30,544 nt of DNA from contig JBAZNO010000001.1 of assembly GCA_041649195.1 (NCBI GenBank), positions 1 through 30,544 on the forward strand, in the 5' to 3' direction. The position numbers were made by a program, and so were the translations under genes. Below the pieces are notes generated by a model, which was given only the letters and a program-made list of their open reading frames with translations, made no database searches and was not told the origin of the DNA. Shown in pieces: positions 1,359 to 29,200 of the stretch. Position 1 is the stretch's first letter. Every line of letters begins with the position of its first letter. Source of the DNA: Minisyncoccota bacterium. Its GTDB lineage: Bacteria > Patescibacteriota > Minisyncoccia > Phycocordibacterales > XYD1-FULL-46-19.

Positions 1359-2549
1359 TTAGGTGATTACTCCCCCGCCGAGGCAGGTTTTACCAGAGTA
1401 GAGAACAAGGGATTGGCCCGGGGTGGCAAGTTGGGGTTGGTCGAAAGTTATTGTGGCGGTGCCTTTTTTGGGGTCAATTTGGGTTAATTGACAGGGTTGG
1501 AGGGGTTGGCGATAGCGGACGCGACCCCAAAGCGGGCGCCCGAGTAAGCCCGCCAAGGGTAACCCTTGAGCTGCTTTTAAAGGGTTACCCTTGGCGGTGG
1601 CGGGCAGCTTACTAATCCAATTTGTTTTTTCGATTTTTACTTCTAATTTCTCAGCGCTGATTAAATGGGGGTTTGAAGAAACGGTGAGGGTATTTTTTTT
1701 AATATCTTTGGCAATAATATAATAAGGCTTTTCGTCCGGGGCCTTGGTGAAGGTTTCGAAGCCGTGTCGTTCGCCCAAAGTGAAAAAGGTCGCTCCATCA
1801 TGTCTCCCAATTATCTCTCCCCTTTCATTCAAAACATCCCCGTCTTTTTCTTTGATCTCACGCTTCAAAAAATCTTTAAAATCAATTTGGCCAACAAAAC
1901 ATAGGCCCTGACTATCTTTTTTAAGAGCATTAGGCAAACCAAATTTCTTAGCTAAGGCGCGGACTTCGGTTTTTGTTTTGTTGCCAATCGGAAACAAAAT
2001 TTTGGCCAATTGCTCTGGTTTTAAATTCCACAAAAAATAAGTCTGATCTTTAGCGGTATCTTTTGACTCGCCAAACAAAAAGTCAGTCTTGCCTTCTCTC
2101 GGTCGATGAGGGGGATTCGAGACCAAGCCTGCTTTTTGTCTGGCTCGTAAAGATTCTTTCTGTGATAAGATTTGACTGTAATGCCCGGTAGCAACAAAAT
2201 CTGCACCGTGCGCTATCGCCCAATCATAAAATACTCCAAACTTAATATGTTTGTTGCACATTACATCAGGGTTAGGCGTGCGGCCGGCCTTATATTCGGC
2301 AATAAAATAATCCACTACTTTTTTCTTGTATTCCCGACTTAAATCAAGAGTAATGAGGGGGATGTCTAAATGGGCCGCGGCTCGTCTTGCCTCCCTCCTT
2401 TCTTCGCGCCAGGTGCAAATAAAACCAGAGGGTTCCCAAACTTTAATAAACACTCCTATCACTTTATACCCGGCCTTTTTCAACAAAGCCGCGCTGACTG
2501 ACGAATCAACGCCCCCTGACATCCCAACATAAACGCACTTAGCCTTCAT
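1359..2549 (-). CDS. mnmA: tRNA 2-thiouridine(34) synthase MnmA
   Basis: VGMSGGVDSSV, TPNPDVMCN..IKF, ATGHY, KDQTYFL, KKDSQGLCF, PGQS.V.Y...CLGGG. Start moved to ATG 2549 (MKAKCVYVG); the upstream TTG lies in an AT-rich promoter-like stretch. Confidence 0.95.
   Translation of the reverse strand: MKAKCVYVGMSGGVDSSVSAALLKKAGYKVIGVFIKVWEPSGFICTWREERREARRAAAHLDIPLITLDLSREYKKKVVDYFIAEYKAGRTPNPDVMCNKHIKFGVFYDWAIAHGADFVATGHYSQILSQKESLRARQKAGLVSNPPHRPREGKTDFLFGESKDTAKDQTYFLWNLKPEQLAKILFPIGNKTKTEVRALAKKFGLPNALKKDSQGLCFVGQIDFKDFLKREIKEKDGDVLNERGEIIGRHDGATFFTLGERHGFETFTKAPDEKPYYIIAKDIKKNTLTVSSNPHLISAEKLEVKIEKTNWISKLPATAKGNPLKAAQGLPLAGLLGRPLWGRVRYRQPLQPCQLTQIDPKKGTATITFDQPQLATPGQSLVLYSGKTCLGGGVIT
1550..1597. 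repeat. 48-bp in-frame palindromic insertion in mnmA
   Basis: Perfect 18-bp arms CCGCCAAGGGTAACCCTT / AAGGGTTACCCTTGGCGG with a 12-nt loop; falls in the ..AKGNPLKAAQGLPLAG.. segment. Confidence 0.85.
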
Positions 2550-2573
2550 GGCTAAGTTATAACACAAACTAGG

Positions 2574-5826: not shown

Positions 5827-8800
5827 TTAGACCACAAAGTTGAGCAATTTATCCTTGATATATATAGCTTTTTTGTACTTTCCTTCAGCTAGCCACTTGG
5901 CCACTAGTGGATTAGTGAGAGCAAGTTTGACAACGCTTTCTTCGCTCTGGCCAGCTGGGAGATTGAGGGTCGCTCGAACCTTACCATTGATTTGAACGAC
6001 AATTTTAACTTCGCTTGAGATTAATTTTTGGGGATCGGCTACGGGCCACGCCGAGAGATGGATTGATTTTGTCTCGCCTAAATTATGCCACAATTCTTCG
6101 GCCACATGGGGCGCTAAGGGGGCAAGTAATTTGAGAAAAATTTTAAAATCTTCGACGGGGATTTGGTCGAGCTTTTCCCAATCATTAGACAAAATCATCA
6201 GGGCCGAAACGGCCGTGTTAAAATTAAAACGATTGATATCGTCGGTCACTTGTTTGATCGTCTTGTGTAAAAGATAATCGCCACCGGTGAGAAGTCGTTT
6301 TTCGTCCTGCGAAATGCGACTTCGCACCGGTGCCACTTTCCCCGCCAAGCGCCAAATCTTCTCCACAAATCTCCGTGACCCCATCAAATTATTGGTACTC
6401 CAAGCCTTAGAGAGTTCGAATGGTCCCATAAACATTTCGTAAAGACGTAAGGTGTCGGCACCATAAAGCCTCACCATATCGTCTGGGTTGATCACATTGC
6501 CCCAGCGCTTGCTCATTTTGCGATTATCCTCGCCCAAAATTAGTCCCTGATTTTTTAATTGGGCAAACGGTTCGGGATAATTAACGACGCCAATATCTTG
6601 CAAAAACTTATGCCAAAAACGGGCGTAGATTAAGTGGCGAGTCGCATGCTCGGTTCCTCCCACATACATATCAACCCCAGTAGCAGAATCTCGCGAGCTC
6701 GATTCGCTACGGGGCAGGCCGGCTCCCAACCAATAATCTAGTTTTTTAATGTCAGCGATAGACTTGCTGTTTTTGGGATCAATAAAGCGTAAAAAGTACC
6801 ATGAAGAGCCGGCCCATTGGGGCATGGTATTAGTTTCGCGCTTGGCGGGCCCTTTGCAGACCGGGCACTTAATATTGACCCAGGTTTTAATGTCAGCCAG
6901 AGGCGATTCCCCTGTGCCGGTGGGGGCATAACTTTTAACTTTAGGTAATTTGACCGGTAAATCTTTTTCGGGTACGGGTACAGCTCGTGGTGAGCCTGCC
7001 GAACCACATTTATCACAATGAATGATCGGGATCGGTTCGCCCCAATAACGTTGACGCGAAAAGACCCAATCGCGCAATTTATATTTTATTATTTGCTGAC
7101 CCCGCGCAAATTTAGTGATCGCTTTTTTGGCTTTTTCATTATCCAGTCCGGTAAATTGCTCGGAATTAATTAGGATTCCTTCTCCAATATAAGGCCCGTC
7201 TACCCCCTTCTTAATTCGCTCTAGCCAAACATCCATTTCGGCATGGACCATGAATTCAGTCGTTAATTCTTCGGGTTTGACCCAGAGAATTTCGTTTTGA
7301 GCCTCCTTTTCTCCTTCGGGAATTTCGCTTTGCTGGTCATCGACGAGGTCAAATTGAACGAGATTGGTAAAAGAAACACGATTAACATTTTTATGATTAG
7401 CAAAATATTCGGCGCGAACTTGTCCGCCAAGAACCTGGCCGTTTTTAAGATTTTGATAACCCGTTTCTTCAAGCACTTCGCGCTTGGCAGCCGTTAACAA
7501 ATCTTCTCCTTCGCTGACCCCACCCATGGGGAAAGTTACCCAATTATATTTATGAGAGTGGAGGCAAAGAATCTTTCCGGTTTTGGGGTTGCGAACAATT
7601 ACTTGAACATTTTTTCGTTCAATTTTTTCTTTACCAGCCACTGGCGGATTTCTCTTATCAATTCGTTCGGGGATAATTACTTCCTTGATCGGTAATTTAA
7701 ATTTCTTGGCAAATTGCCAGTCGCGGTCGTCGTGGGCCGGTACGGCCATAATCGCACCGGTGCCATAATCGGGTAAAACATAATCGGCCACAAAGATTGG
7801 GATCTCCTCTTTATTGGTGGGGTTAATCGCTTTAATCCCCTTCACCTCAACGCCCGTTTTTTCTTTGCCTTCGGCGGTGCGCTCTATTTCACTTCGCTTG
7901 CCAGCCAGAGCGGCGTAATCCTTGATCGCTTTTAAGTTGGTAATATTTTCGGCCAAATCATTAATTAATTTATGCTCTGGCGCTAAGACCAAATAAGTCG
8001 CACCAAATAAAGTGTCGGGGCGAGTAGTAAAAACTTTGACTTGATCGAGACAATGCTCCAAAACGAGGGGTTCGACGGTTCCGCAAAAATGGGATTTTTC
8101 GGCTTTGAGGCGATGGGTTTTGCCACCTAGTGACTGTTGAATAATTTTCGACTCGCCATCGGGGATTAAGCTATCGTTGTCATCTTCGAGAATAACAATC
8201 TCTTTAACATTTTCTTTAATTTTATTAGTATCAAATTTCCAACTCATTAAATATTTAGCCGCTAAACGTTCTTTATCGCGGAATTTTGGCTCAATCAAGC
8301 CGGCCACTAAAATTAATTTATGAATTGGCGTTGATAGTTTTTCTAAAATGCGATAAGACACGACTGAACCGAGCGAGTGACCGACAAGGATGGTGTTAGC
8401 GTCAAATTTTACTTTCGACAAAACATAATCCGCTTGCTCTACCACATCAGGCACATAGGGATGAGGCAAATCGAAGCTAATGACTTCGTGTCCTTGGGCC
8501 TCGAGCTCGCGTTTAAGCCACGGGATAAAGCAACTCTTACTATTACTGCGCCAGCCGTGCAATAAAACATATTTATATTTGGTTTTAAGCGGAAAGGAGA
8601 TCTCGGCGCCCTCACTTTTGCCAATCCAATTGCGTTGGGACTCCTTAATTGATTCAGGCCAATTGAGACCATCAAGATCTTTGAGCAAGCGCTCGGCATA
8701 ATTAGTGATCTTGAGCACCCATTGGCGCATTGGCTTTTTTATCACTTCTGAACCGCATCGTTCGCATTTACCGTCCTCGAGATCTTCGTTGGCGAGACCG

Positions 8801-9375
8801 GTTTGGCAAGACGGGCACCAATTAATTGGCTCCCACGATTCGTAAGCTAGGCCTTTTTTAAAAAGTTGAAGAAAGGCCCATTGCGTCCATTTATAATATT
8901 TGGGGTCGGTGGTATTAATTTCGCGTGACCAATCATAATCAAAACCGATTTTCTCTAATTGCGATTTAAAAACCTTAATATTTTTTTTAACGGCCACTTC
9001 AGGATTAACCTTATTTTTAATGGCATAATTTTCGGCCGGTAAACCAAAGGCGTCCCAACCCATGGGGTGCAAAACATTGAAGCCGTTCATGCGTTTAAAA
9101 CGCGAATAAATATCGGTGGCGGTATAACCCTCAACATGGCCAACATGGAGCCCGTCGCCCGAAGGGTATGGGAACATGTCTAAAATATAGGCCTTGGGCT
9201 TGCCTTTAGAATCGGTAGTTTTATAAGTTTTTTTAGCTCGCCAAACTTTCTGCCACTTAGATTCAATCTTAGCATGATCATACTTGCTTGCTTGCCCATC
9301 CGTAGCTTTGGCGGAGGAGGGCCACTTTTTCTCAATCTTTAAGTGATCGTACTTATCAATTTTTTTAGTCGCCAT
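5827..9375 (-). CDS. leuS: Leucyl-tRNA synthetase with inserted alpha/beta-hydrolase and Nudix domains
   Basis: MFPYPSG.GLHVGH, HPMGWDAFGLPAEN, FTTRPDTLFG, GTGAIMAVPAHD.RD, RDW.FSRQRYWGEPIP, GG.EHA..HL.Y.RF, KMSKRWGN, VVQINGKVR; 1182 aa. Confidence 0.97.
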   Translation of the reverse strand: MATKKIDKYDHLKIEKKWPSSAKATDGQASKYDHAKIESKWQKVWRAKKTYKTTDSKGKPKAYILDMFPYPSGDGLHVGHVEGYTATDIYSRFKRMNGFNVLHPMGWDAFGLPAENYAIKNKVNPEVAVKKNIKVFKSQLEKIGFDYDWSREINTTDPKYYKWTQWAFLQLFKKGLAYESWEPINWCPSCQTGLANEDLEDGKCERCGSEVIKKPMRQWVLKITNYAERLLKDLDGLNWPESIKESQRNWIGKSEGAEISFPLKTKYKYVLLHGWRSNSKSCFIPWLKRELEAQGHEVISFDLPHPYVPDVVEQADYVLSKVKFDANTILVGHSLGSVVSYRILEKLSTPIHKLILVAGLIEPKFRDKERLAAKYLMSWKFDTNKIKENVKEIVILEDDNDSLIPDGESKIIQQSLGGKTHRLKAEKSHFCGTVEPLVLEHCLDQVKVFTTRPDTLFGATYLVLAPEHKLINDLAENITNLKAIKDYAALAGKRSEIERTAEGKEKTGVEVKGIKAINPTNKEEIPIFVADYVLPDYGTGAIMAVPAHDDRDWQFAKKFKLPIKEVIIPERIDKRNPPVAGKEKIERKNVQVIVRNPKTGKILCLHSHKYNWVTFPMGGVSEGEDLLTAAKREVLEETGYQNLKNGQVLGGQVRAEYFANHKNVNRVSFTNLVQFDLVDDQQSEIPEGEKEAQNEILWVKPEELTTEFMVHAEMDVWLERIKKGVDGPYIGEGILINSEQFTGLDNEKAKKAITKFARGQQIIKYKLRDWVFSRQRYWGEPIPIIHCDKCGSAGSPRAVPVPEKDLPVKLPKVKSYAPTGTGESPLADIKTWVNIKCPVCKGPAKRETNTMPQWAGSSWYFLRFIDPKNSKSIADIKKLDYWLGAGLPRSESSSRDSATGVDMYVGGTEHATRHLIYARFWHKFLQDIGVVNYPEPFAQLKNQGLILGEDNRKMSKRWGNVINPDDMVRLYGADTLRLYEMFMGPFELSKAWSTNNLMGSRRFVEKIWRLAGKVAPVRSRISQDEKRLLTGGDYLLHKTIKQVTDDINRFNFNTAVSALMILSNDWEKLDQIPVEDFKIFLKLLAPLAPHVAEELWHNLGETKSIHLSAWPVADPQKLISSEVKIVVQINGKVRATLNLPAGQSEESVVKLALTNPLVAKWLAEGKYKKAIYIKDKLLNFVV
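6282..6332. repeat. 51-bp in-frame palindromic insertion in leuS
   Basis: CACCGGTG-A-GAAGTCG...TTCG-TCCTG-CGAA...CGACTTC-G-CACCGGTG; peptide APVRSRISQDEKRLLTG. Confidence 0.8.
6675..6714. repeat. Palindromic insertion in leuS
   Basis: CCCC-A-GTAGC-A-GAATC...GATTC-GCTAC-GGGG; peptide LPRSESSSRDSATG just before the DMYVGG motif. Confidence 0.7.
6983..7005 (-). repeat. Family A mini-element in leuS
   Basis: Minus strand GGTTCGGCAGGCTCACCACGAGC; peptide GSAGSPRA between C..CG and VPVP. Confidence 0.7.
9290..9322 (-). repeat. Family B mini-element in the leuS N-terminus
   Basis: Minus strand CCCTCCTCCGCCAAAGCTACGGATGGGCAAGC; peptide PSSAKATDGQA; similar to 28441-28471. Confidence 0.75.
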
Positions 9376-9383
9376 TGCGTTTC

Positions 9384-9411
9384 ATCATAACACGAACCAA
9401 AAAGATTTCAA
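9384..9411 (-). promoter_or_regulatory. Near-leaderless leuS promoter
   Basis: TTGAAA, 16 bp, TATGAT with an extended TG, then 8 nt to the ATG; no SD. Confidence 0.55.
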
Positions 9412-9439
9412 TTTGACATCGATGGGTTTGAATTTTATG

Positions 9440-9475
9440 AAAAAGAAAAAGCTGTTTGGGTGCGCAAACAGCTTT
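9440..9475 (-). terminator. Intrinsic terminator downstream of the candidate ncRNA
   Basis: Minus strand AAAGCTGTTTG-CGCACC-CAAACAGCTTT followed by TTCTTTTT. Confidence 0.8.
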
Positions 9476-9482
9476 CCACTGC

Positions 9483-9745
9483 AATACTTGAGCCCAGCCA
9501 GACCCTGGGATCCGGGAATTCGGCCCTGAGTACCTCTTCCGATGCCCATTTGAGGGAACAACTCACACCGTTGCCAAAACCAAGCAGGGCTTGGCTAAAA
9601 GAGACGCCCTCTTCCCGTTGGAGGCCATGACCCACAGCAGAGCTTTGAAGACTTAAAGACTGCCATCATTGGTGGGGAGCATCTTTGCTGGGAGCGCTAA
9701 AACCGAGATTTTCACTCATCCCACTATTGCTTCTTCTCAAGTATC
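9483..9745 (-). ncRNA. Candidate structured ncRNA of unknown family (~263 nt)
   Basis: Perfect 9-bp closing stem ATACTTGAG/CTCAAGTAT, several internal hairpins, ~54% GC (hand count 9481-9720) between AT-rich flanks, terminator immediately 3'. Strand inferred from the terminator. Confidence 0.5.
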
Positions 9746-9815
9746 CTGCTTGATAAAAGCACGAAAAAGTCATTTTGTCTAGGAAAAATGATGTTTTATT
9801 AATTATAACACCTCT

Positions 9816-10490
9816 TTAGTTTTTTTCGATGCCGATGATTTGGCCGTCGTCGATGCGGACGATTTTTTGAGCCATTTTGCCATAAGGTTCTTCGTGGGTC
9901 ACCATGATAATCGTTTGGCCAGCGGCGTGAAGCTCGGTAAAAATTTTCATCACGGCGCGTGAGGATTCGTTATCAAGATTGGCGGTGGGCTCGTCGGCAA
10001 ATAAAATATTTGGCTGGTGGGCAATGGCCCGAGCGATGCTGGCCCGTTGTTGCTCCCCGCCTGAGAGTTGACTCGGCAATTGGTGGAGATGATTAACTAA
10101 ACCCACTTTAGATAAGGATTCGAACGATAATTCGTAAGCCTTACTTTTTTCGACCCCCTGCATCAAGAGGGGTAAAACGACATTTTCGAGAGCGGTTAAT
10201 TCGGGGATTAAAGCGTAATCTTGAAAGACGTAACCTAATTTTTCGAGTCGAAATTTAGTTTTTTCTTCAGCGGTCATCTTGTGGGTGTCGTTACCATCGA
10301 TAATAATTTCGCCGGCGGTTGGTTCGTCAAGCAAGCTCATTTGATACATTAAGGTACTCTTGCCGGCGCCCGAACGACCCATAATGGCAATAAATTCGCC
10401 GGTTTCTACCTTCAAATCAATCCCCTTGAGAACCTTGGTCTCAATGTTGCCGGTGAAGAAGGAGCGTTGTAATTTTTTGGTTTCAATCAT
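9816..10490 (-). CDS. ABC transporter ATP-binding protein, LolD/MacB type
   Basis: GRSGAGKST, LGYVFQ, LSGGEQQR, ILFADEPTANLD, MVTHE. Confidence 0.92.
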   Translation of the reverse strand: MIETKKLQRSFFTGNIETKVLKGIDLKVETGEFIAIMGRSGAGKSTLMYQMSLLDEPTAGEIIIDGNDTHKMTAEEKTKFRLEKLGYVFQDYALIPELTALENVVLPLLMQGVEKSKAYELSFESLSKVGLVNHLHQLPSQLSGGEQQRASIARAIAHQPNILFADEPTANLDNESSRAVMKIFTELHAAGQTIIMVTHEEPYGKMAQKIVRIDDGQIIGIEKN

Positions 10491-10492
10491 AA

Positions 10493-11752: not shown

Positions 11753-11753
11753 A

Positions 11754-13280: not shown

Positions 13281-13295
13281 TAAATGAGTTGTCGT

Positions 13296-17402: not shown

Positions 17403-17424
17403 ATATATTGGTGAGCAAATAGTA

Positions 17425-18387: not shown

Positions 18388-18399
18388 CTTATTTTTATA

Positions 18400-19975: not shown

Positions 19976-19980
19976 TCGAG

Positions 19981-20053
19981 TGGACCATAGCGGGATCGAA
20001 CCGCTTACCTCTTCCATGCCATGGAAGCGCTCTACCAAGTGAGCTAATGGCCC
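19981..20053 (-). tRNA. tRNA-Ala(GGC)
   Basis: Acceptor GGGCCAT/ATGGTCC with G3:U70, anticodon arm CTTCC-ATGGCAT-GGAAG, GGTTCGAT T-loop; CCA not encoded. Confidence 0.95.
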
Positions 20054-20072
20054 TAACGCTTGCCAATATAAC

Positions 20073-20103
20073 AAAAAAGGCCCTGTTTGAAAAGGCCTTT
20101 TTT
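20073..20103. terminator. Terminator hairpin after the surface protein gene
   Basis: AAAAAAGGCC...GGCCTTTTTT, with T-runs on both strands. Confidence 0.7.
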
Positions 20104-20118
20104 GTGACTAATTAGTTT

Positions 20119-21603
20119 TTACCAGAATTTCCAAAAGGGTTTCTTGGCGGTGGTTGTTGCGGTTTGGTCAGTAGAAGTCGCAGCGGTATCAGAAGCTTCT
20201 ACTAAGGGAGTAGCCGTAACGGTTAAGGTCCCAGCACCTTCGCCATCGGCGACAACGGCGGCAAATCCAGGATGCTTAAGCTCGTAAATTCTCCCGCGCA
20301 AGCCATTTAATTTTTTCTTTAATTGTTTTAATTTGTTATATTTAGCCAATTCGATAGGGTTTATCAGAGCCGTGGTTGAAGTACCAAGAACTCTTCCTCC
20401 GCCAATTGGGCCATTTGGTCCCCAGCCAGGGGCAAAGCCGCCACTGTGCCCACCCGTTGAATAGACCGAGCTAACAATAACCGTTCTCGTTACCGGTGTG
20501 GCCACATTACCCAAGCTGTCGGTAACATTATAGGTTAAAGTGTAAGTGCCAATAATGGACGTGTTAACTGTGCCAGAGATAATAATGCTGGCAGTGATAT
20601 CGCCAAATACATCGTCTAGAGCCGTCGCACCGGCTTCAGTATAAGTTTCGCCGACAGTTAAATTAATCGTTGAATTTCCGAGTAAGGTCAAAACTGGAGC
20701 AGTGCCATCAACAGTAACCGCTTGATCAGCACTTTGCGAATGTAAGAAATTATCATAAGCCTGAACAATAATCTTGGTAAGGGTCAAATCTGAAGTATCA
20801 ACTCCGCTTAAAACACAGTTGCCAACAGAGGGGACAATAATATCTGGCCAATAATTAACCGTTCCATTGTCATAGCCAAAATTACAATCTCTAACCCCCG
20901 TTCCCTCGTCGCTAACAGAAACACTCAATTCCGAAGAGGTAGAGATGTAAGTTGTCCCTCCGACAACAAAACTAGGGGTAATTGTTATTGCTCCGACAAT
21001 GGGAACATCGTTATCCACAATAATCGTTTTGCTTGTGTCGGTTGCATTACCGCCAGCGTCAGAATAAACGACTTGAACAGTGTAAGTTCCATCAGGAACA
21101 AAATTGTCAAACTCATCTTTGCCATACCAAATTTTTGGAGTTGGGTGGGTAACACTCGCCCAATTATAAATATTTTTTACCAAAACACTATTCGAGTCTA
21201 AAATATTTAAACTAGCCGTAACCGCGCCGGAAAAATCTAAATCAATACTCGAAGTCGTAGCCAAAACACCAAAAGTATCTTCTGGAGCAATAATTATGTT
21301 ATCAATAGTATAAACATCAAGCGTTGCCGTTGGCGAAGGTGGAGGCAAGGGGGGAATAATCATTGGCCCCATCATTAGCATGGGTGAACCCCCGGAAATT
21401 TCGGGGTCAGTCGTCGTAGCCGGATCGCTCGGAGGCAAAACTGGGTCGGTAGTTGTGGCCGGATCAGCCGGCGGGGTAACTGGATCAATAATTACTGGAT
21501 CTACCAAAGGAGTTGAGCTAGCTTCATCCTCGGCAAAAACCATAATCGACGGGCTGATAATTAAAGCTAAAACAAAGAGAAAAACTAGGAGTCTTTTATT
21601 CAT
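20119..21603 (-). CDS. Secreted/surface protein: Pro/Thr-rich linker, FlgD-Ig-like and DUF5011/HYR-like Ig modules
   Basis: Signal peptide; DPATTTDP twice; WYGKD..DNFVPDGTY (FlgD-Ig-like); APVLTLLG....L.VG.TY.E.GATA.D...GD, G.Y.LTY.V.DS.GN (DUF5011-like); C-terminal KKPFWKFW. Confidence 0.75.
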   Translation of the reverse strand: MNKRLLVFLFVLALIISPSIMVFAEDEASSTPLVDPVIIDPVTPPADPATTTDPVLPPSDPATTTDPEISGGSPMLMMGPMIIPPLPPPSPTATLDVYTIDNIIIAPEDTFGVLATTSSIDLDFSGAVTASLNILDSNSVLVKNIYNWASVTHPTPKIWYGKDEFDNFVPDGTYTVQVVYSDAGGNATDTSKTIIVDNDVPIVGAITITPSFVVGGTTYISTSSELSVSVSDEGTGVRDCNFGYDNGTVNYWPDIIVPSVGNCVLSGVDTSDLTLTKIIVQAYDNFLHSQSADQAVTVDGTAPVLTLLGNSTINLTVGETYTEAGATALDDVFGDITASIIISGTVNTSIIGTYTLTYNVTDSLGNVATPVTRTVIVSSVYSTGGHSGGFAPGWGPNGPIGGGRVLGTSTTALINPIELAKYNKLKQLKKKLNGLRGRIYELKHPGFAAVVADGEGAGTLTVTATPLVEASDTAATSTDQTATTTAKKPFWKFW

Positions 21604-21726
21604 AAATAAAAATAGAGCTGATAATATGCCTAATTACTGGCAAAATAACGCAGTTGGAGCCAAAATCAAAGCCTAGTAATCTGTGGATAATTCTGCTAAG
21701 ATTAGGAGTGGAAGGAGGGTATCTGA

Positions 21727-22266
21727 ATGAAGTCAAAATTCAGCCCCAGACAGAGAAAGTTCCTAAGAACTTGGTTTATTAACTGGATGGCCATCAATGC
21801 TGGTGGTCTCGTTCGGTTAGCGATTGGCGCGCCGATTGAATGGTTCCTCGGTTTCCCCGCCTTAGGGATAGCGAGCTTCAGACTCTTTAGCTGGCTAATC
21901 CTCGATTCGACCTTGGCCTTGCCGGCAGCCCTGATTAGAGAGGGGGTTTATGACCTAAAATTCGTTGACAAGGAAAGTTCTTGGCAATGGATAATCATCG
22001 ACACCACCATCTTAACGGCTTACAAGGGATTGTCCTATGCCTTGTGCCTATTGCCGGTGTGGTTGTGGATGGGGTTGCCGGGAACAACGTTTTTGGGCCT
22101 ACTGACCGTCAATCTTGGCCTTTTTCTCACGACAGGAGCCGTCAACTACTATTACGTTGACGTCCTCGACAAGAACTGGCTAGATTTGACTGAAAGACTC
22201 TTAGGCTGGACAAAAGAATCTAAGAGAAAAATGGTCAAAAAAATGCCCCGAAAAAAAAGAGAGTAA
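21727..22266 (+). CDS. AlaE-like (L-alanine exporter family) membrane protein
   Basis: The pattern IE.FL.G...RL...A.P...R...S.W...D...Y...G...N...GAV..Y..D matches, by eye, E. coli AlaE/YgaW as recalled; SD AAGGAGG. Confidence 0.55.
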   Translation: MKSKFSPRQRKFLRTWFINWMAINAGGLVRLAIGAPIEWFLGFPALGIASFRLFSWLILDSTLALPAALIREGVYDLKFVDKESSWQWIIIDTTILTAYKGLSYALCLLPVWLWMGLPGTTFLGLLTVNLGLFLTTGAVNYYYVDVLDKNWLDLTERLLGWTKESKRKMVKKMPRKKRE

Positions 22267-22280
22267 TTTATCTTTCCCTC

Positions 22281-22308
22281 CCCCGATGACGGCTTGCCGT
22301 CATCGGGG
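22281..22308. terminator. Hairpin between the convergent AlaE-like gene and ddl
   Basis: Perfect 12-bp stem CCCCGATGACGG-CTTG-CCGTCATCGGGG. Confidence 0.75.
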
Positions 22309-22327
22309 ATTGTCATTTTTAATAATT

Positions 22328-23329
22328 TTATTTTTTATTTAACGCCAGGGTGATCACGTGATCAAGAAATTGGTCGTAAGGGATACCGGCGGCTCGCAAA
22401 GATTTAGGGATTAGCGACTCTTCAGTCATCCCGGGCAAAGTATTAACCTCGAGCGCATAAATCCCCCGTGGTGAAATGATAAAATCTGACCGTGAGTAAT
22501 GACGCAGGCCAAGCACCTTATGAATTTCGGCGGCCAGCCGCTCTAATTCGGCCTTTTCTTCTTTAGTAAAACGCCCGGGACAAATTTCGGACGTAATGCC
22601 GGTATATTTGGCCTCATAATCAAAAAGGTTTTTGTCGGACGGAGTGACGATCTCGATCGGCAACAACGAGTAATGATTTTTCCCGCGCATGCCATCAACC
22701 ACGCCACAGGTGGCCTCTTTGCCCTTAATATATTCTTCAACTAAAACGGCATCGCTAAAATTAAAACAGCTCTCAACGGCCTGCACGAGTTCGGGAAAAG
22801 TTTTTGCTAAATAAAGGCCAACCGACGAACCGCTCCCGGCCGGCTTAACAATCCAAGGGGGAGAAATTTGACGAAAAACATCATGAGCAATGGCCTCAGC
22901 GTCAGCTTGTCCTGAGTCTTGTCGAAGGGTTTGATAATCTCTTTTGACCACCACTCCGTTCGGCACCTTAATCCCCGCTTTTTTAAAAACCTCTTTGGCC
23001 CGTGGCTTGTCCATCCCGAGCGCCGAGGCTACCATCCCCGAGCCAGTATAGGGCACCGCGAGATAATCTAGCAGTTGTTGCACTTGTCCATCCTCGCCAA
23101 ATTCGCCATGCAAAGCATTAAAAATGACGTCAACGCTCCGAACCGCTCGTTCGGGTGACATCGGCGCGCCATTAACATGCCAGGTGCCATCACGCGACAA
23201 AAGCATATCCACTGGTTGATATTTATCACTCGGCAGATTTTTGATTACACTGGCGCCAGTTTTAAGCGACACTTCATATTCGTGCCCAATTCCACCACGT
23301 AAAATACCGACTTTAATTAATGACGACAT
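22328..23329 (-). CDS. ddl: D-alanine--D-alanine ligase
   Basis: GG...E.EVSL.TG, FNALHGEFGEDG, PYTGSG, MDK, VKP..SGSSVG, FDYEAKY, SRSDF, LEVNTLPGMT..S. Confidence 0.95.
   Translation of the reverse strand: MSSLIKVGILRGGIGHEYEVSLKTGASVIKNLPSDKYQPVDMLLSRDGTWHVNGAPMSPERAVRSVDVIFNALHGEFGEDGQVQQLLDYLAVPYTGSGMVASALGMDKPRAKEVFKKAGIKVPNGVVVKRDYQTLRQDSGQADAEAIAHDVFRQISPPWIVKPAGSGSSVGLYLAKTFPELVQAVESCFNFSDAVLVEEYIKGKEATCGVVDGMRGKNHYSLLPIEIVTPSDKNLFDYEAKYTGITSEICPGRFTKEEKAELERLAAEIHKVLGLRHYSRSDFIISPRGIYALEVNTLPGMTEESLIPKSLRAAGIPYDQFLDHVITLALNKK
22905..22929 (-). repeat. Family A mini-element in ddl
   Basis: Minus strand CCCTTCGACAAGACTCAGGACAAGC; peptide TLRQDSGQA. Confidence 0.75.
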
Positions 23330-23351
23330 CTACTTTTTACTTGCGACTAAA

Positions 23352-23723
23352 TTATTTGAGAATCTCTTTAATTTTGAGGACGACATCATCCAGGGTAAAG
23401 TTGGCCTTAACGAGAAAGTCGATCGCTCCAAGAGCGTGTGCCTTTTCAATATCTTCTTTTTGGCCAAGATTAGAGAAAACGATCACCGGGATATCTTTAG
23501 TCTTGGGATCCTCCTTAATTTTTTTCAAAACCTCAAAACCGTCAACTCCGGGCAAGAGCAGATCCAAGAAAATTAAATTTGGCATTTCTTTAGGAATGAG
23601 ATCAATCGCATTTTGCCCATCAACCGCTACTGCCACCTTAAAACCTTCGGTCTCTAACCTTTTCGCATTAAGCGAGCGTAAAAATTCATCGTCCTCAACA
23701 ATCAACACTTTTTTTGGTTCCAT
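23352..23723 (-). CDS. Single-domain response regulator (receiver)
   Basis: VLIVEDD, LIFLDLLLP (phospho-Asp), VFSN, FLVKA. Confidence 0.92.
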   Translation of the reverse strand: MEPKKVLIVEDDEFLRSLNAKRLETEGFKVAVAVDGQNAIDLIPKEMPNLIFLDLLLPGVDGFEVLKKIKEDPKTKDIPVIVFSNLGQKEDIEKAHALGAIDFLVKANFTLDDVVLKIKEILK

Positions 23724-23761
23724 ATGGTTATCCTTATTTAAATTATTAATTATTTACCCTA

Positions 23762-23812
23762 TTGAGTAAAAATTATTTCATAATTTTATGATGCTAAAGC
23801 ATCATTACTCAA
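23762..23812. other. Perfect branched (three-way junction) palindrome
   Basis: TTGAGTA | AAAATTAT-TTC-ATAATTTT | ATGATGCT-AA-AGCATCAT | TACTCAA. Confidence 0.75.
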
Positions 23813-23821
23813 CTGGGTGAA

Positions 23822-24805
23822 TTATACTTTTTTCTGGTGTAAAGGTAAAGTGAACGAAAAGGCTGTTCCCTGCCCAGGGTGATTTTCGAACCAAATCGCT
23901 CCACCATGCTTCTCAATAATGTCTCGAGCAATAAAAAGGCCTAGGCCCGAGCCGTCTGGCTCCGCTTTAATGGCATTAGAGGCGCGAAAGAACTTCTGAA
24001 ACATTTTGTCGGCTTCGCCAGCCGGGATCCCGATACCCGAGTCGGTTACCGTAATCTCTATCGCCCCCTCGGCGCTATTGAGACGTTCGTCAGAGATTTT
24101 GATTTCCACCTTGCCTCCTTCGGGTGTGTATTTAATGGCGTTATCAACCAGATTTTCGAGCACCATCCGGATTTTGTCGGCATCTAATTCAATCTGCGGG
24201 ACAGTCGTTTGGGGTCGAAGAAAAAGAAAATTAATTTTTTTGATCGTGGCCTGATTAGTAAATTCAAAAATAATATTGGAGACCAAATTAATCAAATCGG
24301 TTGGACGAAAAGTATAATCAGCTCGATCGGTATCAATCGAATCAACTTTAAGCAAATCGTTAACGATCGAGATTACCCGTTCGGTGCTAGTTAGGCCTTG
24401 GAATAGAAACTTTTTTTGCTCCTCATTTACTGTTCCCAATTGACCTTTAGCAGCCATGTCTAGTGTCCACTTAACGGCGGCCAGCGGAGTGCGTAATTGA
24501 TGAGTGGTCACCGAGACAAATTTTGACTTGGCCTCCTCCAAGGTTTGGAGTTTTTTGTTGGCCAAGGTTAAACCAAGCTCTTTAGAATAAAGTTCGCGAT
24601 TTTTTGCGGCAAGTTCGTTATTAACTTTTTGTAATTCTTGAATCTGTTGAGTTTTGAGATTGGCCTCATTAATTAAAATCTGCAAACGACTTTCGCGACT
24701 TTGCCAAAAACGGCCAAGGTAAAAAACAGCGACAAAAAACAATAGCAACAATACCCAAAAGCCCGGGTAATTAATAAAAGAAAAATCTAGGTAGGCGTCT
24801 AACAC
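23822..24805 (-). CDS. Sensor histidine kinase (TM, coiled coil, HisKA, HATPase)
   Basis: THQLRTPL, LENLVDNAIKYT, DSGIGI, F.KFFR, GSGLGL. Start proposed at GTG 24805, 6 nt after TATAAT. Confidence 0.9.
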   Translation of the reverse strand: MLDAYLDFSFINYPGFWVLLLLFFVAVFYLGRFWQSRESRLQILINEANLKTQQIQELQKVNNELAAKNRELYSKELGLTLANKKLQTLEEAKSKFVSVTTHQLRTPLAAVKWTLDMAAKGQLGTVNEEQKKFLFQGLTSTERVISIVNDLLKVDSIDTDRADYTFRPTDLINLVSNIIFEFTNQATIKKINFLFLRPQTTVPQIELDADKIRMVLENLVDNAIKYTPEGGKVEIKISDERLNSAEGAIEITVTDSGIGIPAGEADKMFQKFFRASNAIKAEPDGSGLGLFIARDIIEKHGGAIWFENHPGQGTAFSFTLPLHQKKV

Positions 24806-24812
24806 CCATTCA

Positions 24813-26135
24813 TTATACCAATCGTCCGCGCAATTTTCTATGGTAAGAGAGTGCAAAACGATGGGCCTCGGCATTGGCCTCAATTATCGCCTGACGATAA
24901 TCCCGAATAATGGCCGAACTTTCTAATTGTCGAGGCAAGCCAATTAATCTTGAAGCCTTATGCTTATCATCTTTAGCCACCCCAATTACAACACATGCCC
25001 CCAAATCCCAAGGGTAATCCTTGGACAAATTTTGGACGACGTTGAGTTGGATTTGGTTGCCATCAACCACAATAATATCGGGCATTGGCCACTCAGGGTG
25101 ATTAAAACGTCGCTCGAGAATTTCGCGCAGATTTTCGGGATCATTGATTCCCACTTCTGCGTTATTTCTGCGTTTCGTCTGCGTCCGTCCGCGTAATTTA
25201 AATTTCTTGTATTCACTTCTCTGCATTTCACCATCTTGCCACACCGTCATTGCCCCAGTCGTGTTTTTACCCGATAAGTGGGCAATGTCGTAGGCTTCAA
25301 TTCTAATTTGAGCCCGAGGTGAGTCCTTAAGTGAGCCCAAGGTCTCTCCTCGGGCACCTTTTGCCTTCAACAACGACACATCCCGAATATGATTTAACGC
25401 AAAAATTTGATCGCGAATTTTTCCCGCTTTTTCAAATTCTTTTTTCTTGGCCAAAACCTTCATCCCGCGTTCAAGATTTTTTATCACTTCTTTTTTCTTC
25501 CCCTCAAAAAATAATTTAATATTCCGCACAATCTTGCGATAATCAGTTTTTGAAATCTCACCAGTACAAACTCCCGGACAAAGGCCAATTTGTTTGTTAA
25601 AACAAGGCTTGCCAGAATTTGGCAGACATTTATCTCTATACGGAAAAATTTTGCGGATAATCTTCAACGCCTCTTTCATCTCTGCCCCATAGGGAAATGG
25701 CCCAAATTGGTCTTTTATCCCCAGTTTTGTATGGTCTATCGAAGTCGAACTTCGATAATTTTTACTCTCTAATTCCCGGCCACGGATTGGGAGAATGCGC
25801 GGAAAGTCTTCGTCAGTGATAATCACATACCAATAACTCTTATCATCCTTCTCGCGAGTGTTATAAGGTGGTTGATGTTTCTTAATTAATTCGGTCTCCA
25901 ACAACAAGGCCTCCAAAACTGAATCCGTTTCCTGCCACTCAATTTTATTTGCTAAAGCAAGCATTTGGGTAATTTTAGGACCCCGAGTCTCCCCTAAATC
26001 TCCAACAAAATAACTCTTCACTCGATCTTTAAGCGAAGTTGCTTTGCCTATGTATAAGATATCTCGCCCACGTTTAAAAAAATACACCCCAGGCGAGTCG
26101 GGCAAATTATGGCATTTTAAGTCTTGACTAAGCAT
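24813..26135 (-). CDS. uvrC: Excinuclease UvrC, short form with no HhH tail recognised
   Basis: LPDSPGVY, LYIGKATSLKDRVKSYF, EALLLE..LIK...P.YN, FGPF, RIEAYDIAH.SG, PDIIVVDG, EAHRFA. Confidence 0.93.
   Translation of the reverse strand: MLSQDLKCHNLPDSPGVYFFKRGRDILYIGKATSLKDRVKSYFVGDLGETRGPKITQMLALANKIEWQETDSVLEALLLETELIKKHQPPYNTREKDDKSYWYVIITDEDFPRILPIRGRELESKNYRSSTSIDHTKLGIKDQFGPFPYGAEMKEALKIIRKIFPYRDKCLPNSGKPCFNKQIGLCPGVCTGEISKTDYRKIVRNIKLFFEGKKKEVIKNLERGMKVLAKKKEFEKAGKIRDQIFALNHIRDVSLLKAKGARGETLGSLKDSPRAQIRIEAYDIAHLSGKNTTGAMTVWQDGEMQRSEYKKFKLRGRTQTKRRNNAEVGINDPENLREILERRFNHPEWPMPDIIVVDGNQIQLNVVQNLSKDYPWDLGACVVIGVAKDDKHKASRLIGLPRQLESSAIIRDYRQAIIEANAEAHRFALSYHRKLRGRLV
25156..25194. repeat. 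Four ~11-bp-period TC(T/C)GCGT units in uvrC
   Basis: Units at 25156, 25167, 25178 and 25188; peptide RGRTQTKRRNNAE. Confidence 0.65.
25312..25355. repeat. Palindromic insertion in uvrC
   Basis: GCCCGAGG-T-GAG-T-CCTT...AAGG-T-CTC-T-CCTCGGGC; peptide ARGETLGSLKDSPRA. Confidence 0.75.
25714..25757. repeat. Partial third copy of the 923/1303 repeat plus a 21-bp hairpin inside uvrC
   Basis: TTTATCCCCAGTTTTGTAT (18/19 identical to 923-941), then GGTC and TATCGAAGT-CGA-ACTTCGATA. Confidence 0.75.
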
Positions 26136-26207
26136 GGTTTATATAATATAACAAATACGGAGAAGTACAAATTTTTTGTAGTAATAACCGGAAAGGAAGG
26201 AAGCACT

Positions 26208-26396
26208 ATGCCAAAGGGAGAGTACGTCAGAACGAGGCCCCCGGCGGGGAGAAAGCAATTCGGACGATTTAGCCTCCGGCCCAAGGGGGTGACCCGGGAA
26301 GATAAAAGAATTGAAGATGCCTTGGCCTCAATGCCGAGTAGCGTTCCCAAGCACCGGAATCCCAGTTTTAGGGCCTCCAAGCCCAAATTAAAATAG
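26208..26396 (+). CDS. Small basic hypothetical protein (62 aa)
   Basis: SD-like GAAAGGAAGG upstream of ATG 26208; hairpin CCCCTCT-TGTG-AGAGGGG downstream. Confidence 0.5.
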   Translation: MPKGEYVRTRPPAGRKQFGRFSLRPKGVTREDKRIEDALASMPSSVPKHRNPSFRASKPKLK

Positions 26397-26429
26397 AGCC
26401 TACCGGCACCCCCTCTTGTGAGAGGGGCC

Positions 26430-26465
26430 AACCACGCAGAGATCTGACTTCAGCTCCGCGTGGTT
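26430..26465. terminator. Hairpin at the uvrA stop (possibly bidirectional)
   Basis: AACCACGC-A-GAG...CTC-C-GCGTGGTT followed by TATTTTTTT. Confidence 0.5.
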
Positions 26466-29200
26466 TATTTTTTTCTTAACGCTCTCTTTAAATATTTGGC
26501 GGTATAAGAACCAAGCCTCTCTGCCGACGGAGCCGGCGCATAAGCCACTTCTTCGGGTGTACCCTTAGCCACTAAATTGCCCCCACCCAAGCCCCCTTCA
26601 GGACCAAGATCAATTACATAATCAGCGCATTTAATTACCTCCATATTGTGTTCAATCACCACCACCGTATTCCCCTTCTCGACTAATTTTTGCAAAATGT
26701 CGTTTAAGTTTTTAACATCTTCATAATGCAAACCAATCGTCGGTTCATCAAGAATATAGATGGTACGCTCAGTGTAGGGACGATAAAGTTCAGACGAAAT
26801 TTTAACGCGTTGGGCCTCACCACCAGAAAGATCGGTGGCTGATTGTCCCAACTCTAAATACCCGAGCCCAACTTCATTAAGCGTTTTTAATCTGTCATGA
26901 ATTGCTGGGATATCGTTAAAAAATTCTAATGCTTCCTCCACTGTCATATGCAAGATCTGGCTAATATTTTTCTTTTTGTATTGTACTTCGAGCGTATCTT
27001 TTTCATAACGTGTGCCCATACACACATCGCAAGGCACATAAATGGTTGGTAAAAAGTGCATCTCCACCGCTACTTCGCCATTACCCTGACAAGCCTCACA
27101 GCGTCCTCCTTGCACATTGAAGGAGAAGCGCGACGCCTTCCACCCCCTTGCTCGCGCGAGCGCCGTTTCGGCCAATAATTCGCGAATAAAGGTAAAGGCA
27201 CCGGTATAAGTGGCCGGATTTGAGCGTGGAGTGCGACCAATGGGCGATTGATCGATCATCACCACCCGACTTAGATATTCGGAACCAGAAAATTCCCTAC
27301 AATTAAATAATTCATTAGTGCGATAACGACGCTCTAGTCGAGCCTGCAAGTTTTTATGCAGGATTTCGTAAACCAACGACGATTTGCCTGAACCAGAGAC
27401 ACCGGTAATCGCCACTAATTTGCCGAGGGGGATATCAACATTTATGTTTTTGATATTAAAGACATTACCGCCGCGAATTTTGATGGTGCCCTTATCCTTG
27501 CTGCGTCGTTTTTCGGGCACCGGGATTTCGATATCGCCTCTTAAATAATCAACGGTAAGAGAATTATAATCATTCTTTTTAGAAGTTAAGAGTCTATCAG
27601 TTTCGCCCGCTACCACAATATGACCACCATGCACACCAGCACCCGGACCAATGTCGACAAGGTAATCAGACGCAAAAATCGTGTCTTCGTCATGCTCCAC
27701 CACCACAATTGAGTTACCTAGATCGCGAAGTTCGAGCAGGGTCTTAATTAATTTATCATTATCGCGCGCATGGAGGCCAATTGTTGGCTCATCAAGCACG
27801 TAAAGAGTACCAACGAGGCGTGAGCCAAGTTGTGAGGCCAAGCGAATACGTTGGGCTTCGCCACCCGACAAAGTGTCGGCTCGACGGCTAAGTTCAATAT
27901 AATCAAGGCCAACATCGTTTAAGAACTTCAGCCGTGCCCCAATTTCTTTAAACAAGACTTCAGAAATGGCTTTTTCTTTGGGGGTTAACTTAATTGTATC
28001 GAAAAGTTTTTTGGCCTCGCCGATCGAGAGATTAACTGTCTCAACGATATTAAGGCCCGCTTGGCCTGAGCCTGTCGAATGGCCAATTCTCACCTGCAAA
28101 GCCTCTGGTCGCAGACGCGCACCATTACAAACTTCGCAAAGCTCATTGCCCCACATATGTTTAGTGCCTAAGCCGTGACACTCTGGGCAAGCACCATAAG
28201 GCGAATTAAAAGAGAAGAGTCGTGGCTCGATTTCAGGGAAGGAGAAGCCGTCGTTGGGGCAGGCAAATTTTGACGATAAAAGGAAAGTATTCTCTTGCCC
28301 TGAGTTTGTCGAAGGGCCGGCCAAAACAATCTTGACCAAGCCCTCCGATTCTTTAAGCGCCCGCTCAACCCCCTCGGTTAGGCGTTCGTTGGCCGAGTCG
28401 GACTTAGCTGAAGCAACAATTGTCGCCAAAGACGATCCTTGCTTGCCCGTCGAAGCCTTGGCAGAGTCGGGAGAAATTTTTAAAGGGGAGTCCTTGGCGA
28501 CCTTTTGATTGAAATCAGCTAAGTTTATCTCATCAATCACCACATCAATATCATGCTTTTTGGTTTTGGTTAGGATAATCCTTTCACGTAATTTGTATTT
28601 TTTGCCATCAATCAAAACTTCGGAGTAACCCTTATCGATCAAATCATAAAGCAATTGATAGTACTCGCCCTTTCGACCCCGAACCACTGGGGCAAGAAGG
28701 GTTACGTTGGCAACGGCGCGAGATCCCATTTCGCTACGCGAAAAACGATCTCTCTCCGTCGCCCCCATTTTTTCTTTAATAAAATTCACAATCTCTTCAT
28801 GCGATAATTTCTCAATCCGCTCGCCACAAATCGGACAATGGGGTTGGCCAATGCGAGCATAAAGCACCCGCAAATAATCGTAAATTTCGGTAATCGTGGC
28901 CACGGTCGAGCGCGGATTGTGCGAACGAGATTTTTGATCAATCGAAATAGCTGGCGAGAGACCCGAGATCTCGTCAACATCTGGCTTAGGTAATTGTTTT
29001 AAAAATTGTCGAGCATAAGCCGACAGTGACTCCACATAACGACGTTGGCCTTCAGCAAAAATGGTATCGAAAGCAAGCGAAGATTTGCCTGAACCCGAGA
29101 GACCAGTAAAAACCACCAGCTTATTGCGCGGTATCTCCAAATTAATATTTTTAAGGTTGTGCGTTCGCGCCCCCTTAATTTTTATTTTATGTTCCTCCAT
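26465..29200 (-). CDS. uvrA: Excinuclease UvrA, insertion domain apparently missing
   Basis: [40 protein letters not shown], two LSGGEAQR signatures, LDEPTIGLH twice, CEAC.G/CDVC.G zinc finger. Start set at ATG 29200. Confidence 0.96.
28059..28082 (-). repeat. Family A mini-element in uvrA
   Basis: Minus strand CCATTCGACAGGCTCAGGCCAAGC; peptide HSTGSGQA. Confidence 0.75.
28294..28316 (-). repeat. Family A mini-element in uvrA
   Basis: Minus strand CCCTTCGACAAACTCAGGGCAAG; peptide PSTNSGQE. Confidence 0.75.
28441..28471 (-). repeat. Family B mini-element in uvrA
   Basis: Minus strand CCCGACTCTGCCAAGGCTTCGACGGGCAAGC; peptide [11 protein letters not shown]. Confidence 0.75.
28710..28762. repeat. 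Palindromic insertion in uvrA
   Basis: GCAACGG..GAGATC..TTTCGC-TAC-GCGAAA..GATCTC..CCGTCGC; peptide [18 protein letters not shown]. Confidence 0.75.

Follow-up and report, generated by a model that had tools for sequence, protein, structure and literature searches.

Housekeeping genes of a reduced genome carry lineage-specific in-frame inserts

We analysed a stretch of 30,544 nucleotides (henceforth the window) which constitutes contig C1 (JBAZNO010000001.1) of a metagenome-assembled genome (MAG) of a Minisyncoccota bacterium, a reduced Patescibacteria-type genome of approximately 0.6 Mb from groundwater. The MAG, labelled G000 (its relatives also carry G numbers), comprises 86 contigs and 590,501 bp and is 90% complete and 89% coding. 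Five housekeeping genes of the window carry short, GC-rich in-frame inserts, many of them palindromic:

1359-2567, minus strand: mnmA
5827-9375, minus strand: leuS
22328-23329, minus strand: ddl
24813-26135, minus strand: uvrC
26465-29317, minus strand: uvrA

An earlier note on this DNA, made from the sequence alone, had proposed that these genes are peppered with hairpin-forming mini-elements of several tiny non-autonomous families, each adding a peptide in a loop. We aligned each protein, at both protein and codon level, with orthologs from 8 same-genus genomes and about 20 that share the family or order with G000. Each of the 15 protein-coding sites listed in that note proved to be an in-frame insertion or an insertion hot spot absent from close orthologs: close relatives had a gap at each coding site, with lengths divisible by 3, and codon-level pairs of empty and filled alleles were found among congeners. 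The observation of in-frame mini-repeats in housekeeping genes is thus confirmed, and its interpretation is supported with the corrections given below. Two uvrC inserts (24986-25025 and 24918-24938) extend the earlier list, and the housekeeping genes of the window hold at least 17 lineage-specific in-frame inserts, listed here with the repeat families (F1, F2, F3 and repetitive extragenic palindromic, or REP, units) described in the following sections:

1543-1613, minus strand, mnmA: REPIN-like hairpin (REPIN, a doublet of REPs forming a hairpin) with a 54-nt (18-codon) insert at 1545-1598
2090-2145, minus strand, mnmA: variable insert of about 24 codons, weak hairpin
6280-6334, minus strand, leuS: F3 hairpin, peptide APVRSRISQDEKRLLTGG, in a region of variable hairpins among orthologs
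6676-6729, minus strand, leuS: hairpin insert of 16 codons
6986-7003, minus strand, leuS: insert SAGSPR of 18 nt (6 codons) with F1-like core TTCGGCAGGCTCA, a degraded F1
9253-9354, minus strand, leuS N-terminus: F2 arrangement with the F2 unit at 9290-9321, peptide PSSAKATDGQA (about 11 codons)
22905-22928, minus strand, ddl: F1 unit LRQDSGQA, exactly 24 nt (8 codons), without target duplication
24918-24938, minus strand, uvrC: insert LPRQLES, 7 codons
24986-25025, minus strand, uvrC: C20-type REP unit with a CCAAGG-N5-CCTTGG hairpin, a G-run and a TGTGTTGTAA tail
25152-25187, minus strand, uvrC: direct-repeat insert, three ACGCAGA repeats 11 nt apart, net 8 codons
25312-25355, minus strand, uvrC: hairpin with conserved GGGCTCACTT loop, -30.3 kcal/mol
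25714-25757, plus strand, uvrC: REP unit with an 18/19 match to the leader of the unit at 923 and then a 9-bp-stem hairpin, TATCGAAGT-cga-ACTTCGATA
26513-26533, minus strand, uvrA: insert APSAERL, 7 codons
28059-28082, minus strand, uvrA: F1 unit HSTGSGQA, exactly 24 nt
28293-28316, minus strand, uvrA: F1 unit PSTNSGQE, 24 nt
28422-28501, minus strand, uvrA: F2 unit of 30 nt (28442-28471) nested in the loop of a REPIN-like host hairpin
28709-28763, minus strand, uvrA: F3 hairpin in a hot-spot loop

Presence and absence of these inserts varied from site to site. In mnmA, the ortholog of G001 (L044) is empty at 1545 and seven other relatives hold different hairpins there, making the loop a hot spot with a different hairpin per genome in at least 8 genomes; the insert at 2090 is absent in G005 and G008, partly present in G002, and its site is occupied by other inserts in G003, G004 and G006. 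In leuS, G007 and G008 hold related RSRIS..EKRLL inserts at the F3 site (6280), the hairpin at 6675 is absent in 11 of 11 orthologs aligned over that stretch, and SAGSPR is found only in G000, with another 8-codon insert at the same place in G010. The N-terminal F2 arrangement of leuS, in which the F2 unit lies between diverged 33-nt direct copies of the host segment KYDHxKIExKW (9322-9354 and 9253-9285), is common to G000 and G005 and absent in seven other close orthologs. The F1 unit of ddl is found in G000 and G006 only and the site is empty in six congeners. As for uvrC, the insert at 25152 is present only in G000, and the site at 25312 carries an RGE......SPR-type hairpin in most congeners and not in other genera. 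In uvrA, APSAERL is absent in 17 of 17 orthologs and in PDB structure 9gxk; the site at 28059 has a variant in G006, a 15-nt remnant in G007 and empty alleles in four congeners; and the F1 at 28293 is unique to G000 among eight genomes compared at codon level. The host hairpin at 28422 is intact in G006, where it lacks F2, and at 28709 the loop of G004 contains the F3 family in inverted orientation, G006 and G007 have other hairpins there, and the loop is empty in G002, G003, G008 and G010.

Many, but not all, of the inserts are palindromic, as had been claimed. Six of the named segments fold strongly, with energies of about -27 to -37 kcal/mol: besides uvrC 25312, these are mnmA 1550-1597 (-35.8 kcal/mol, with a perfect 18-bp stem and a 12-nt loop), leuS 6282 (-35.6), leuS 6675 (-28.4), uvrA 28294 (-26.9) and uvrA 28710 (-37.2). 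By contrast, several sites fold weakly (2090, 9290, 25156 and 28441), the site at 25156 consists of direct repeats, and F1 shows no stem covariation.

One explanation to be considered is that the inserts are artefacts of assembly or binning. Apart from the fragmentation of the MAG into 86 contigs, we found nothing in favour of it. The window sequence recurs unchanged in a groundwater run, a landfill run, and contigs from the European Nucleotide Archive (ENA) and the Joint Genome Institute (JGI), and because the two metagenomes are independent, the sequence is no assembly artefact. Orthologs of other genomes moreover carry diverged versions of the same inserts, and all reading frames remain open, so that the chance of an artefact is negligible. 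As a separate observation, window positions 9250-29249 showed zero differences to metagenome contigs from groundwater (2022) and landfill (2019), in pieces of up to several kb, and therefore essentially one strain is present in the two studies.

The earlier note had also placed an element in a tRNA D arm. Its 36-nt palindrome was recovered (17036-17071), situated in the D loop of a 5'-truncated copy of a tRNA gene:

16983-17083, minus strand: degenerate tRNA-Ala(UGC) copy, 5'-truncated, abutting the intact gene, with the palindrome at 17036-17071 in the D loop

The truncated copy was called a tRNA by ARAGORN and not by Rfam; at gathering score, two tRNAs and no other Rfam family matched in the window (nor did any family match in 9483-9745, upstream of leuS). 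Within 16983-17159, the intact tRNA-Ala(UGC) continues straight into the second copy, which starts at approximately position 10 and has a mutated T loop, a layout that resembles the remnant of an element integration into a tRNA gene.

The inserts belong to repeat families in excess over chance

The genome shows a clear excess of repeated 12-mers and perfect hairpins over codon-shuffled controls. Specifically, 112 distinct 12-mers with at least 50% GC occur in at least 5 copies (maximum 13), versus none in the shuffles; perfect hairpins with stems of at least 9 bp number 190 versus 27-56; and those with stems of at least 11 bp number 95 (30 genic, 56 intergenic and 9 overlapping gene ends) versus 1-7. 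The idea of tiny non-autonomous element families in essential genes was borne out by copies elsewhere in the genome and by presence and absence that differ among congeners, as was that of added peptide: repeats that encode nothing by themselves are placed in frame within essential genes. Single-linkage clustering of the repeats by k-mers was abandoned, since everything merged into one giant component. Searching for F3 with a loose pattern, and for the F2 core with 2 mismatches allowed, returned mostly false hits, so strict sets were used.

F1 is a 24-nt unit (CCN-TTCGACAAGCTCA-GGN-CAAGC, read xSTSSGQA) found in the window in ddl (22905), in uvrA (28059 and 28293) and, in degraded form, in leuS (6986). 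All ten strict copies in G000 are genic and co-oriented with their gene, and nine of the ten lie in the STSSGQA frame. In six pairs of empty and filled alleles, F1 was an exact 24-nt insert after a codon's second base, with neither a target duplication nor an obvious target motif. Its N positions do not covary, and we therefore did not treat it as a hairpin. The core is found in all genus members (1-11 copies, with most in G000) and two sister genera, and is at chance level elsewhere among the relatives. We also observed five intergenic G000 copies of TAG-TTCGACAAGCTCAC-TATAAA (C5:7896, C11:7108, C28:4479, C37:5908 and C48:3323), which hold the F1 core followed by AT-rich, promoter-like sequence in place of GGNCAAGC.

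F2, by contrast with F1, has stems that covary. It is a 30-nt hairpin read SAKAS, with a 5-6-bp stem, a TTCGCTAAAGCTWC loop and a CAAG(C) tail, and occurs in the window at leuS 9290 and uvrA 28442. Across 23 copies, a mean of 4.74 of 6 positions pair, versus 3.54 when permuted (0 of 5000 permutations reached the observed value), and three different types of Watson-Crick pair occur at one position of the stem. The clean F1 and F2 junctions (six) are exact 24-nt or 30-nt inserts without duplication; of the target duplications that the earlier note had suggested looking for, the 33-nt duplication in leuS is the lone exception.

F3 is a 55-nt hairpin with copies in opposite orientations in leuS (6280) and uvrA (28709) and more on contigs C27 and C34. 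A long-hairpin class, to which mnmA 1550, uvrC 25312 and the uvrA hairpin hosting F2 belong, combines stems that differ by subfamily with a loop of 10-13 nt that is conserved (GGGCTCACTT and relatives); the GGGCTCACTT loop recurs with other stems in at least 7 copies, both genic and intergenic. The mnmA-type layout (S-L-CCTT, a 12-nt spacer, AAGG-L'-S') has 4 copies (mnmA, C78, C42 and C23).

Our overall reading, which we consider fairly probable, is that the inserts are interspersed mobile repeats filtered by selection. The hairpins could instead have arisen and grown in place, with no transposition at all, through quasipalindrome template switching and slippage in tolerant loops, their shared motifs being convergent or spread by gene conversion. 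Several features fit this explanation: in the mnmA subfamily (4 of 4 members) and in F3 (4 of 4), every copy has its own outer 6-8 bp of stem; in mnmA, a copy-specific 7-bp outer stem lies outside the 1550-1597 stem, and one half of it is host sequence kept in the empty ortholog (GCTTACT at the insert's right end mirrors AGTAAGC in the host); the uvrC insert at 25152 is a plain direct-repeat expansion; and the leuS F2 unit is flanked by its 33-nt direct duplication. Growth in place leaves unexplained, however, why unrelated genes and contigs should share identical units of 24 nt and 30 nt or cores of 40-55 nt, and why the F1 24-mer recurs exactly in at least 15 phyla (see below), and the CCCGACGACCCTT subfamily has no flank-specific stem extension. 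As an origin of the elements we thus judge it improbable; as a secondary process by which stems lengthen, template switching is plausible, and the mnmA outer stem is suggestive of growth by template switching or by flank copying at insertion.

Mobile repeats also have to be weighed against allele exchange, in which a few old insertions would have been shuffled among related strains by homologous recombination to give the patchy distribution. Indeed, the leuS N-terminal arrangement links G000 with G005 and not with the closer relatives G002 and G006, and the ddl F1 unit is common to G006 only. On the other hand, the UvrA and MnmA hot spots hold different families and orientations in one loop, depending on the species, and the F1 units in leuS of G003 and G006 are offset from each other by one or two codons. 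Because of these differing families, orientations and offsets, independent insertion events are required, and we give exchange as the main source of patchiness little credence.

Inserts probably occupy tolerant loops

UvrA of G000 has five extra segments (18, 10, 8, 8 and 7 codons) relative to orthologs of which the closest are 93% identical. All five were gaps in the alignment with the solved UvrA 9gxk, and in an AlphaFold model of moderate mean confidence (mean predicted local distance difference test score, pLDDT, 67) they lay in coil with pLDDT below 50, between regular secondary-structure elements. For UvrA, the proposed loop location of the extra peptides is thus upheld, and inserts in the other proteins presumably occupy loops as well. 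In the same alignment, chain residue 304 of 9gxk was followed by 423 while the query moved from 385 to 389, and because of this jump UvrA and its relatives appear to be without about 118 canonical residues.

Two of the other proteins have unusual architectures in their own right. UvrC is only 440 aa long (orthologs about 410-490 aa), with Pfam matches to GIY-YIG, UVR and RNase H-like endonuclease domains and none found for the C-terminal helix-hairpin-helix domain. LeuRS has 1182 aa, with two domains nested in the synthetase, an alpha/beta-hydrolase (aa 269-424) and a NUDIX domain (aa 587-715). Their distribution is mosaic: the former is found in most genus members and G022, the latter in G000, G002 and the hydrolase-less orthologs of G012, G023 and G026.

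In a genome that is 89% coding, selection would keep only those inserts that have a length divisible by three, are free of stops and fall in tolerant surface loops, and such a filter would explain both the frame and orientation bias, which fits selection, and the recurrent use of the same loops. Insertions that recur in the same loops, and one that is nested, point to some degree of targeting towards existing hairpins: these may draw new inserts, and their stems may later lengthen by flank copying.

Selection could instead keep the hairpins for a cis function as RNA or DNA structures, e.g., internal terminators or promoters, mRNA stability or translational pausing. Members of the same families follow genes with T-runs in a terminator-like manner, the C20-type unit ends, ahead of genes, in a tail (TGTGTTATAAT) that resembles an extended -10, and F2 stems covary. 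Covariation would be expected equally if mobility needs the hairpin, however, and close orthologs work without the hairpins, unrelated hairpins fill the same loop, and positions track protein loops rather than mRNA features. A cis function is therefore quite unlikely as the reason for their retention.

RAYT-like genes are bracketed by their own hairpins

The earlier note recognised no mobilising enzyme in the window apart from a speculative GIY-YIG domain. No mobiliser is indeed present there, and the GIY-YIG domain belongs to UvrC, as its usual N-terminal nuclease. The genome search it had proposed returned three Pfam Y1_Tnp matches above cut-off, on contigs C20, C70 and C36 and none in the window. 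The encoded proteins (224-237 aa) carry HUH (NHFHLL) and tyrosine (YxHxNP; YIHxNP) motifs, and their sole NCBIfam match (34-44 bits) is NF047646, the REP-associated tyrosine transposase (RAYT); we refer to them as RAYT-like. No solved structure matched a RAYT-like protein in sequence, and neither a DUF559 nuclease nor TnpB was found in the 90% complete genome. All three genes show a REPtron layout, i.e., each is bracketed on both sides by its own hairpin, and one of these hairpins recurs between genes of the window:

RAYT-like gene on C20: TCCAAGG-N5-CCTTGGA hairpin on both sides
RAYT-like gene on C70: TGTGCGA-N9-TCGCACA hairpin on both sides, preceded by the leader of the window units at 923 and 1303
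RAYT-like gene on C36: ACGAGGA-cgg-TCCTCGT hairpin on both sides
923-966, plus strand, window: intergenic C70-type REP unit, leader TTTATCCCCACTTTTGTATAC and then a hairpin with a 7-bp stem, TGTGCGA-N9-TCGCACA

A second C70-type unit lies at 1303-1346 with its loop flipped. Copy numbers in the genome are low and the genic share is large: 14 C20-type copies (8 intergenic, 6 genic), 8 C70-type copies (6 intergenic, 2 genic) and 4 C36-type copies. Among the relatives, each of the 8 genus members has 1-6 copies of a RAYT-like gene; of the 31 genomes overall, 19 have at least one, and approximately 17 of 27 RAYT loci are flanked on both sides by one hairpin, which differs by locus. The ten genomes with an exact F1 core all have RAYT genes too, but represent about three independent lineages.

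Three inserts tie the window to these hairpins. The unit at uvrC 24986-25025, a hot spot in relatives, is a full copy of the REP unit bracketing the C20 RAYT-like gene. The unit at uvrC 25714-25757, translated in frame as YRSSTSIDHTKLGIK, has a hairpin type which also brackets the RAYT-like genes of G006, G005 and G008; its net gain is merely 6-7 codons, so it must have replaced part of the linker. Finally, the arms of the mnmA hairpin have a CCAAGG-GTAAC-CCTT form, near to the REP flanking the C20 gene; they correspond to two inverted C20-like REPs around a 12-nt spacer and therefore fit the definition of a REPIN (PMC3116915).

By this association, RAYT-like enzymes could be what mobilises the REP class, a tentative proposal to which we give somewhat less than an even chance. 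They would move, or once have moved, REP and REPIN hairpins in trans as single-stranded DNA, a route that would leave no target duplication. F1 (24 nt) and F2 (30 nt) form a second class of exact units, likewise without target duplication, whose reach extends far beyond the lineage.

Two further observations concern the RAYT-like genes. Inside the C70 gene (C70:1043-1065) lies a further copy of the hairpin that flanks it, in frame and with the loop flipped. Upstream of the RAYT-like gene, and also of other genes, an extended -10-like TGTGTTATAAT lies approximately 12 nt downstream of the C20-type unit, which may act as a portable promoter; the G000 locations are as follows:

C20:6480-6600, C20-type unit with TGTGTTATAAT
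C20:7250-7400, C20-type unit with TGTGTTATAAT
C20:2568, C20-type unit with TGTGTTATAAT
C14:7822, C20-type unit with TGTGTTATAAT
C4:6595, C20-type unit with TGTGTTATAAT

F1 occurs far beyond the lineage

The exact F1 24-mer (22 specified bases) was found in at least 120 matching stretches of one-genome-per-species contigs, versus approximately 0.07 expected by chance. Among the matches listed, it was spread over at least 15 phyla, including cultured Sphingopyxis, Citromicrobium, Chakrabartia and Microcoleus; twelve viral contigs carried F1 and four carried F2. Across phyla (128 copies among the matches listed), 82 copies lay outside long open reading frames, and the genic ones used all frames, mostly reading STSSGQ. 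F1 is therefore a DNA element, and for its strict frame bias in G000, selection in an 89% coding genome is the best explanation.

One subfamily of the Rfam family Acido-Lenti-1 (RF01687) in Acidobacteriota bears the F1 24-mer within the loop of its first hairpin, where it forms a 25-nt insertion:

L151:6668-6737, Acidobacteriota: Acido-Lenti-1 with F1
L151:6875-6944, Acidobacteriota: Acido-Lenti-1 with F1
L122, L180 and L186, Acidobacteriota: further Acido-Lenti-1 with F1

F1 lies inside these matches yet outside the model proper, and the window has no match to the family. That F1 always sits in a hairpin loop was rejected as a general rule, since inverted repeats flank 23 of 128 copies versus 9.4 expected, just a modest enrichment. 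No RAYT gene was found near F1 in other phyla, where 859 kb gave one weak match. Elsewhere (L177:4718-4817, L119 and L132), we observed tandem F1 arrays with a 38-nt period in a deltaproteobacterial MAG and dense arrays of the sub-motifs CCTTCGA and AAGCTCAGGGMC in a Pseudomonadota MAG; the CAAGC tail of F1 resembles the start of a second CAAGCTCAGG unit.

A bolder interpretation, which we put forward as speculative and on present evidence rather doubtful, is that F1, and probably F2, are pan-bacterial "nano-elements" of 24-30 nt that insert as exact units, without target duplication and often into single-stranded hairpin loops, by a mechanism acting in trans, possibly phage-borne, with no link to RAYT or other genes nearby. 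The hairpin-loop cases are the REPIN loop in uvrA and the Acido-Lenti-1 hairpin in Acidobacteriota.

Weighing the mobile-repeat reading

Several results weigh against the view that the inserts are mobile repeats moved by RAYT-like enzymes. The RAYT-like proteins score below the NCBIfam equivalog cut-off (43 versus 80 bits), and beside the stems there is no GTAG/CGTC tag of classical REPs but a TATCCCCAC-type leader. Across 27 relatives, RAYT presence did not correlate with the density of genic hairpins (p = 0.35). F1 and F2 flank none of the RAYT-like genes of G000, and no gene family, RAYT included, recurs beside F1 in 136 loci of other organisms. Four of the sites (6675, 2090, 26513 and 25152) are single-copy in G000. 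The codon gain of some units is smaller than the unit itself, so that they must have replaced sequence rather than being plainly inserted, and no empty alleles were seen among assembled metagenome contigs at approximately 6x depth.

Relation to known systems

The comparison with Rickettsia palindromic elements (RPEs) and REP/RAYT systems made in the earlier note was apt. RPEs were reportedly described by Ogata et al. in 2000, RPE-1 being said to measure about 100-150 bp. Like them, the repeats of G000 are palindromic and lie in frame in housekeeping genes of a reduced genome, with peptides presumed to form surface loops. Unlike them, they are units of 18-55 nt rather than about 100-150 bp (a comparison by unit size), and in this lineage several families nest in or replace each other at the same loops. 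Some RPEs have been equated with CGTC-tagged REPs (PMC3733652).

Intragenic REPs, many of them in replication and repair genes including uvrA and uvrB, as well as REPtrons, have been described before (Di Nocera et al. 2013, PMC3733652), and so the kind of element reported here is already known. The likeness to these and to REPIN/RAYT systems (Bertels & Rainey 2011, PMC3116915) comprises dispersed palindromic repeats of 20-40 nt, which are sometimes inverted doublets and in some cases genic and in frame, Y1/HUH genes (RAYT there, RAYT-like here) bracketed by their own repeats, and no target duplication. In contrast to the classical systems, G000 has no GTAG/CGTC tag and a TATCCCCAC-type leader before some units, proteins of about 225-237 aa that fall below the NCBIfam RAYT cut-off, and three diverged RAYT-like copies per 0.6 Mb, each with its own hairpin; about one third of its strong hairpins are genic (30/95), whereas classical REPs are extragenic. 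Further differences are the host group, the density of inserts with nesting at few loops, and the tiny F1 and F2 without a linked enzyme.

The "peel and paste" elements IS200/IS605 (PMC6006769) likewise involve a Y1/HUH enzyme which recognises DNA hairpins and leaves no target duplication, but the repeats of G000 are not ends of a gene-bearing insertion sequence, TnpB was not found, and no conserved target tetranucleotide was seen. Classification as miniature inverted-repeat transposable elements was rejected, as terminal inverted repeats with target-site duplication were not found (the six clean F1/F2 junctions have no duplication, with the 33-nt case of leuS as the exception). In open-access text, we found no description of these motifs or peptides, nor of the phenomenon in the Candidate Phyla Radiation (CPR) or Patescibacteria.

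These findings mean that selfish repeats occur even in very small genomes with densely packed genes, and that such repeats persist in essential proteins, where they rebuild the same surface loops. This bears on marker-gene annotation and alignment in Patescibacteria-type genomes, on the origin of new loop sequence, and on the role of REP/RAYT systems outside Proteobacteria. An exact 24-nt unit in at least 15 phyla without a linked enzyme poses a mechanistic question that is now testable, and nano-elements, if real, would be a regular source of new protein loop sequence in compact genomes.

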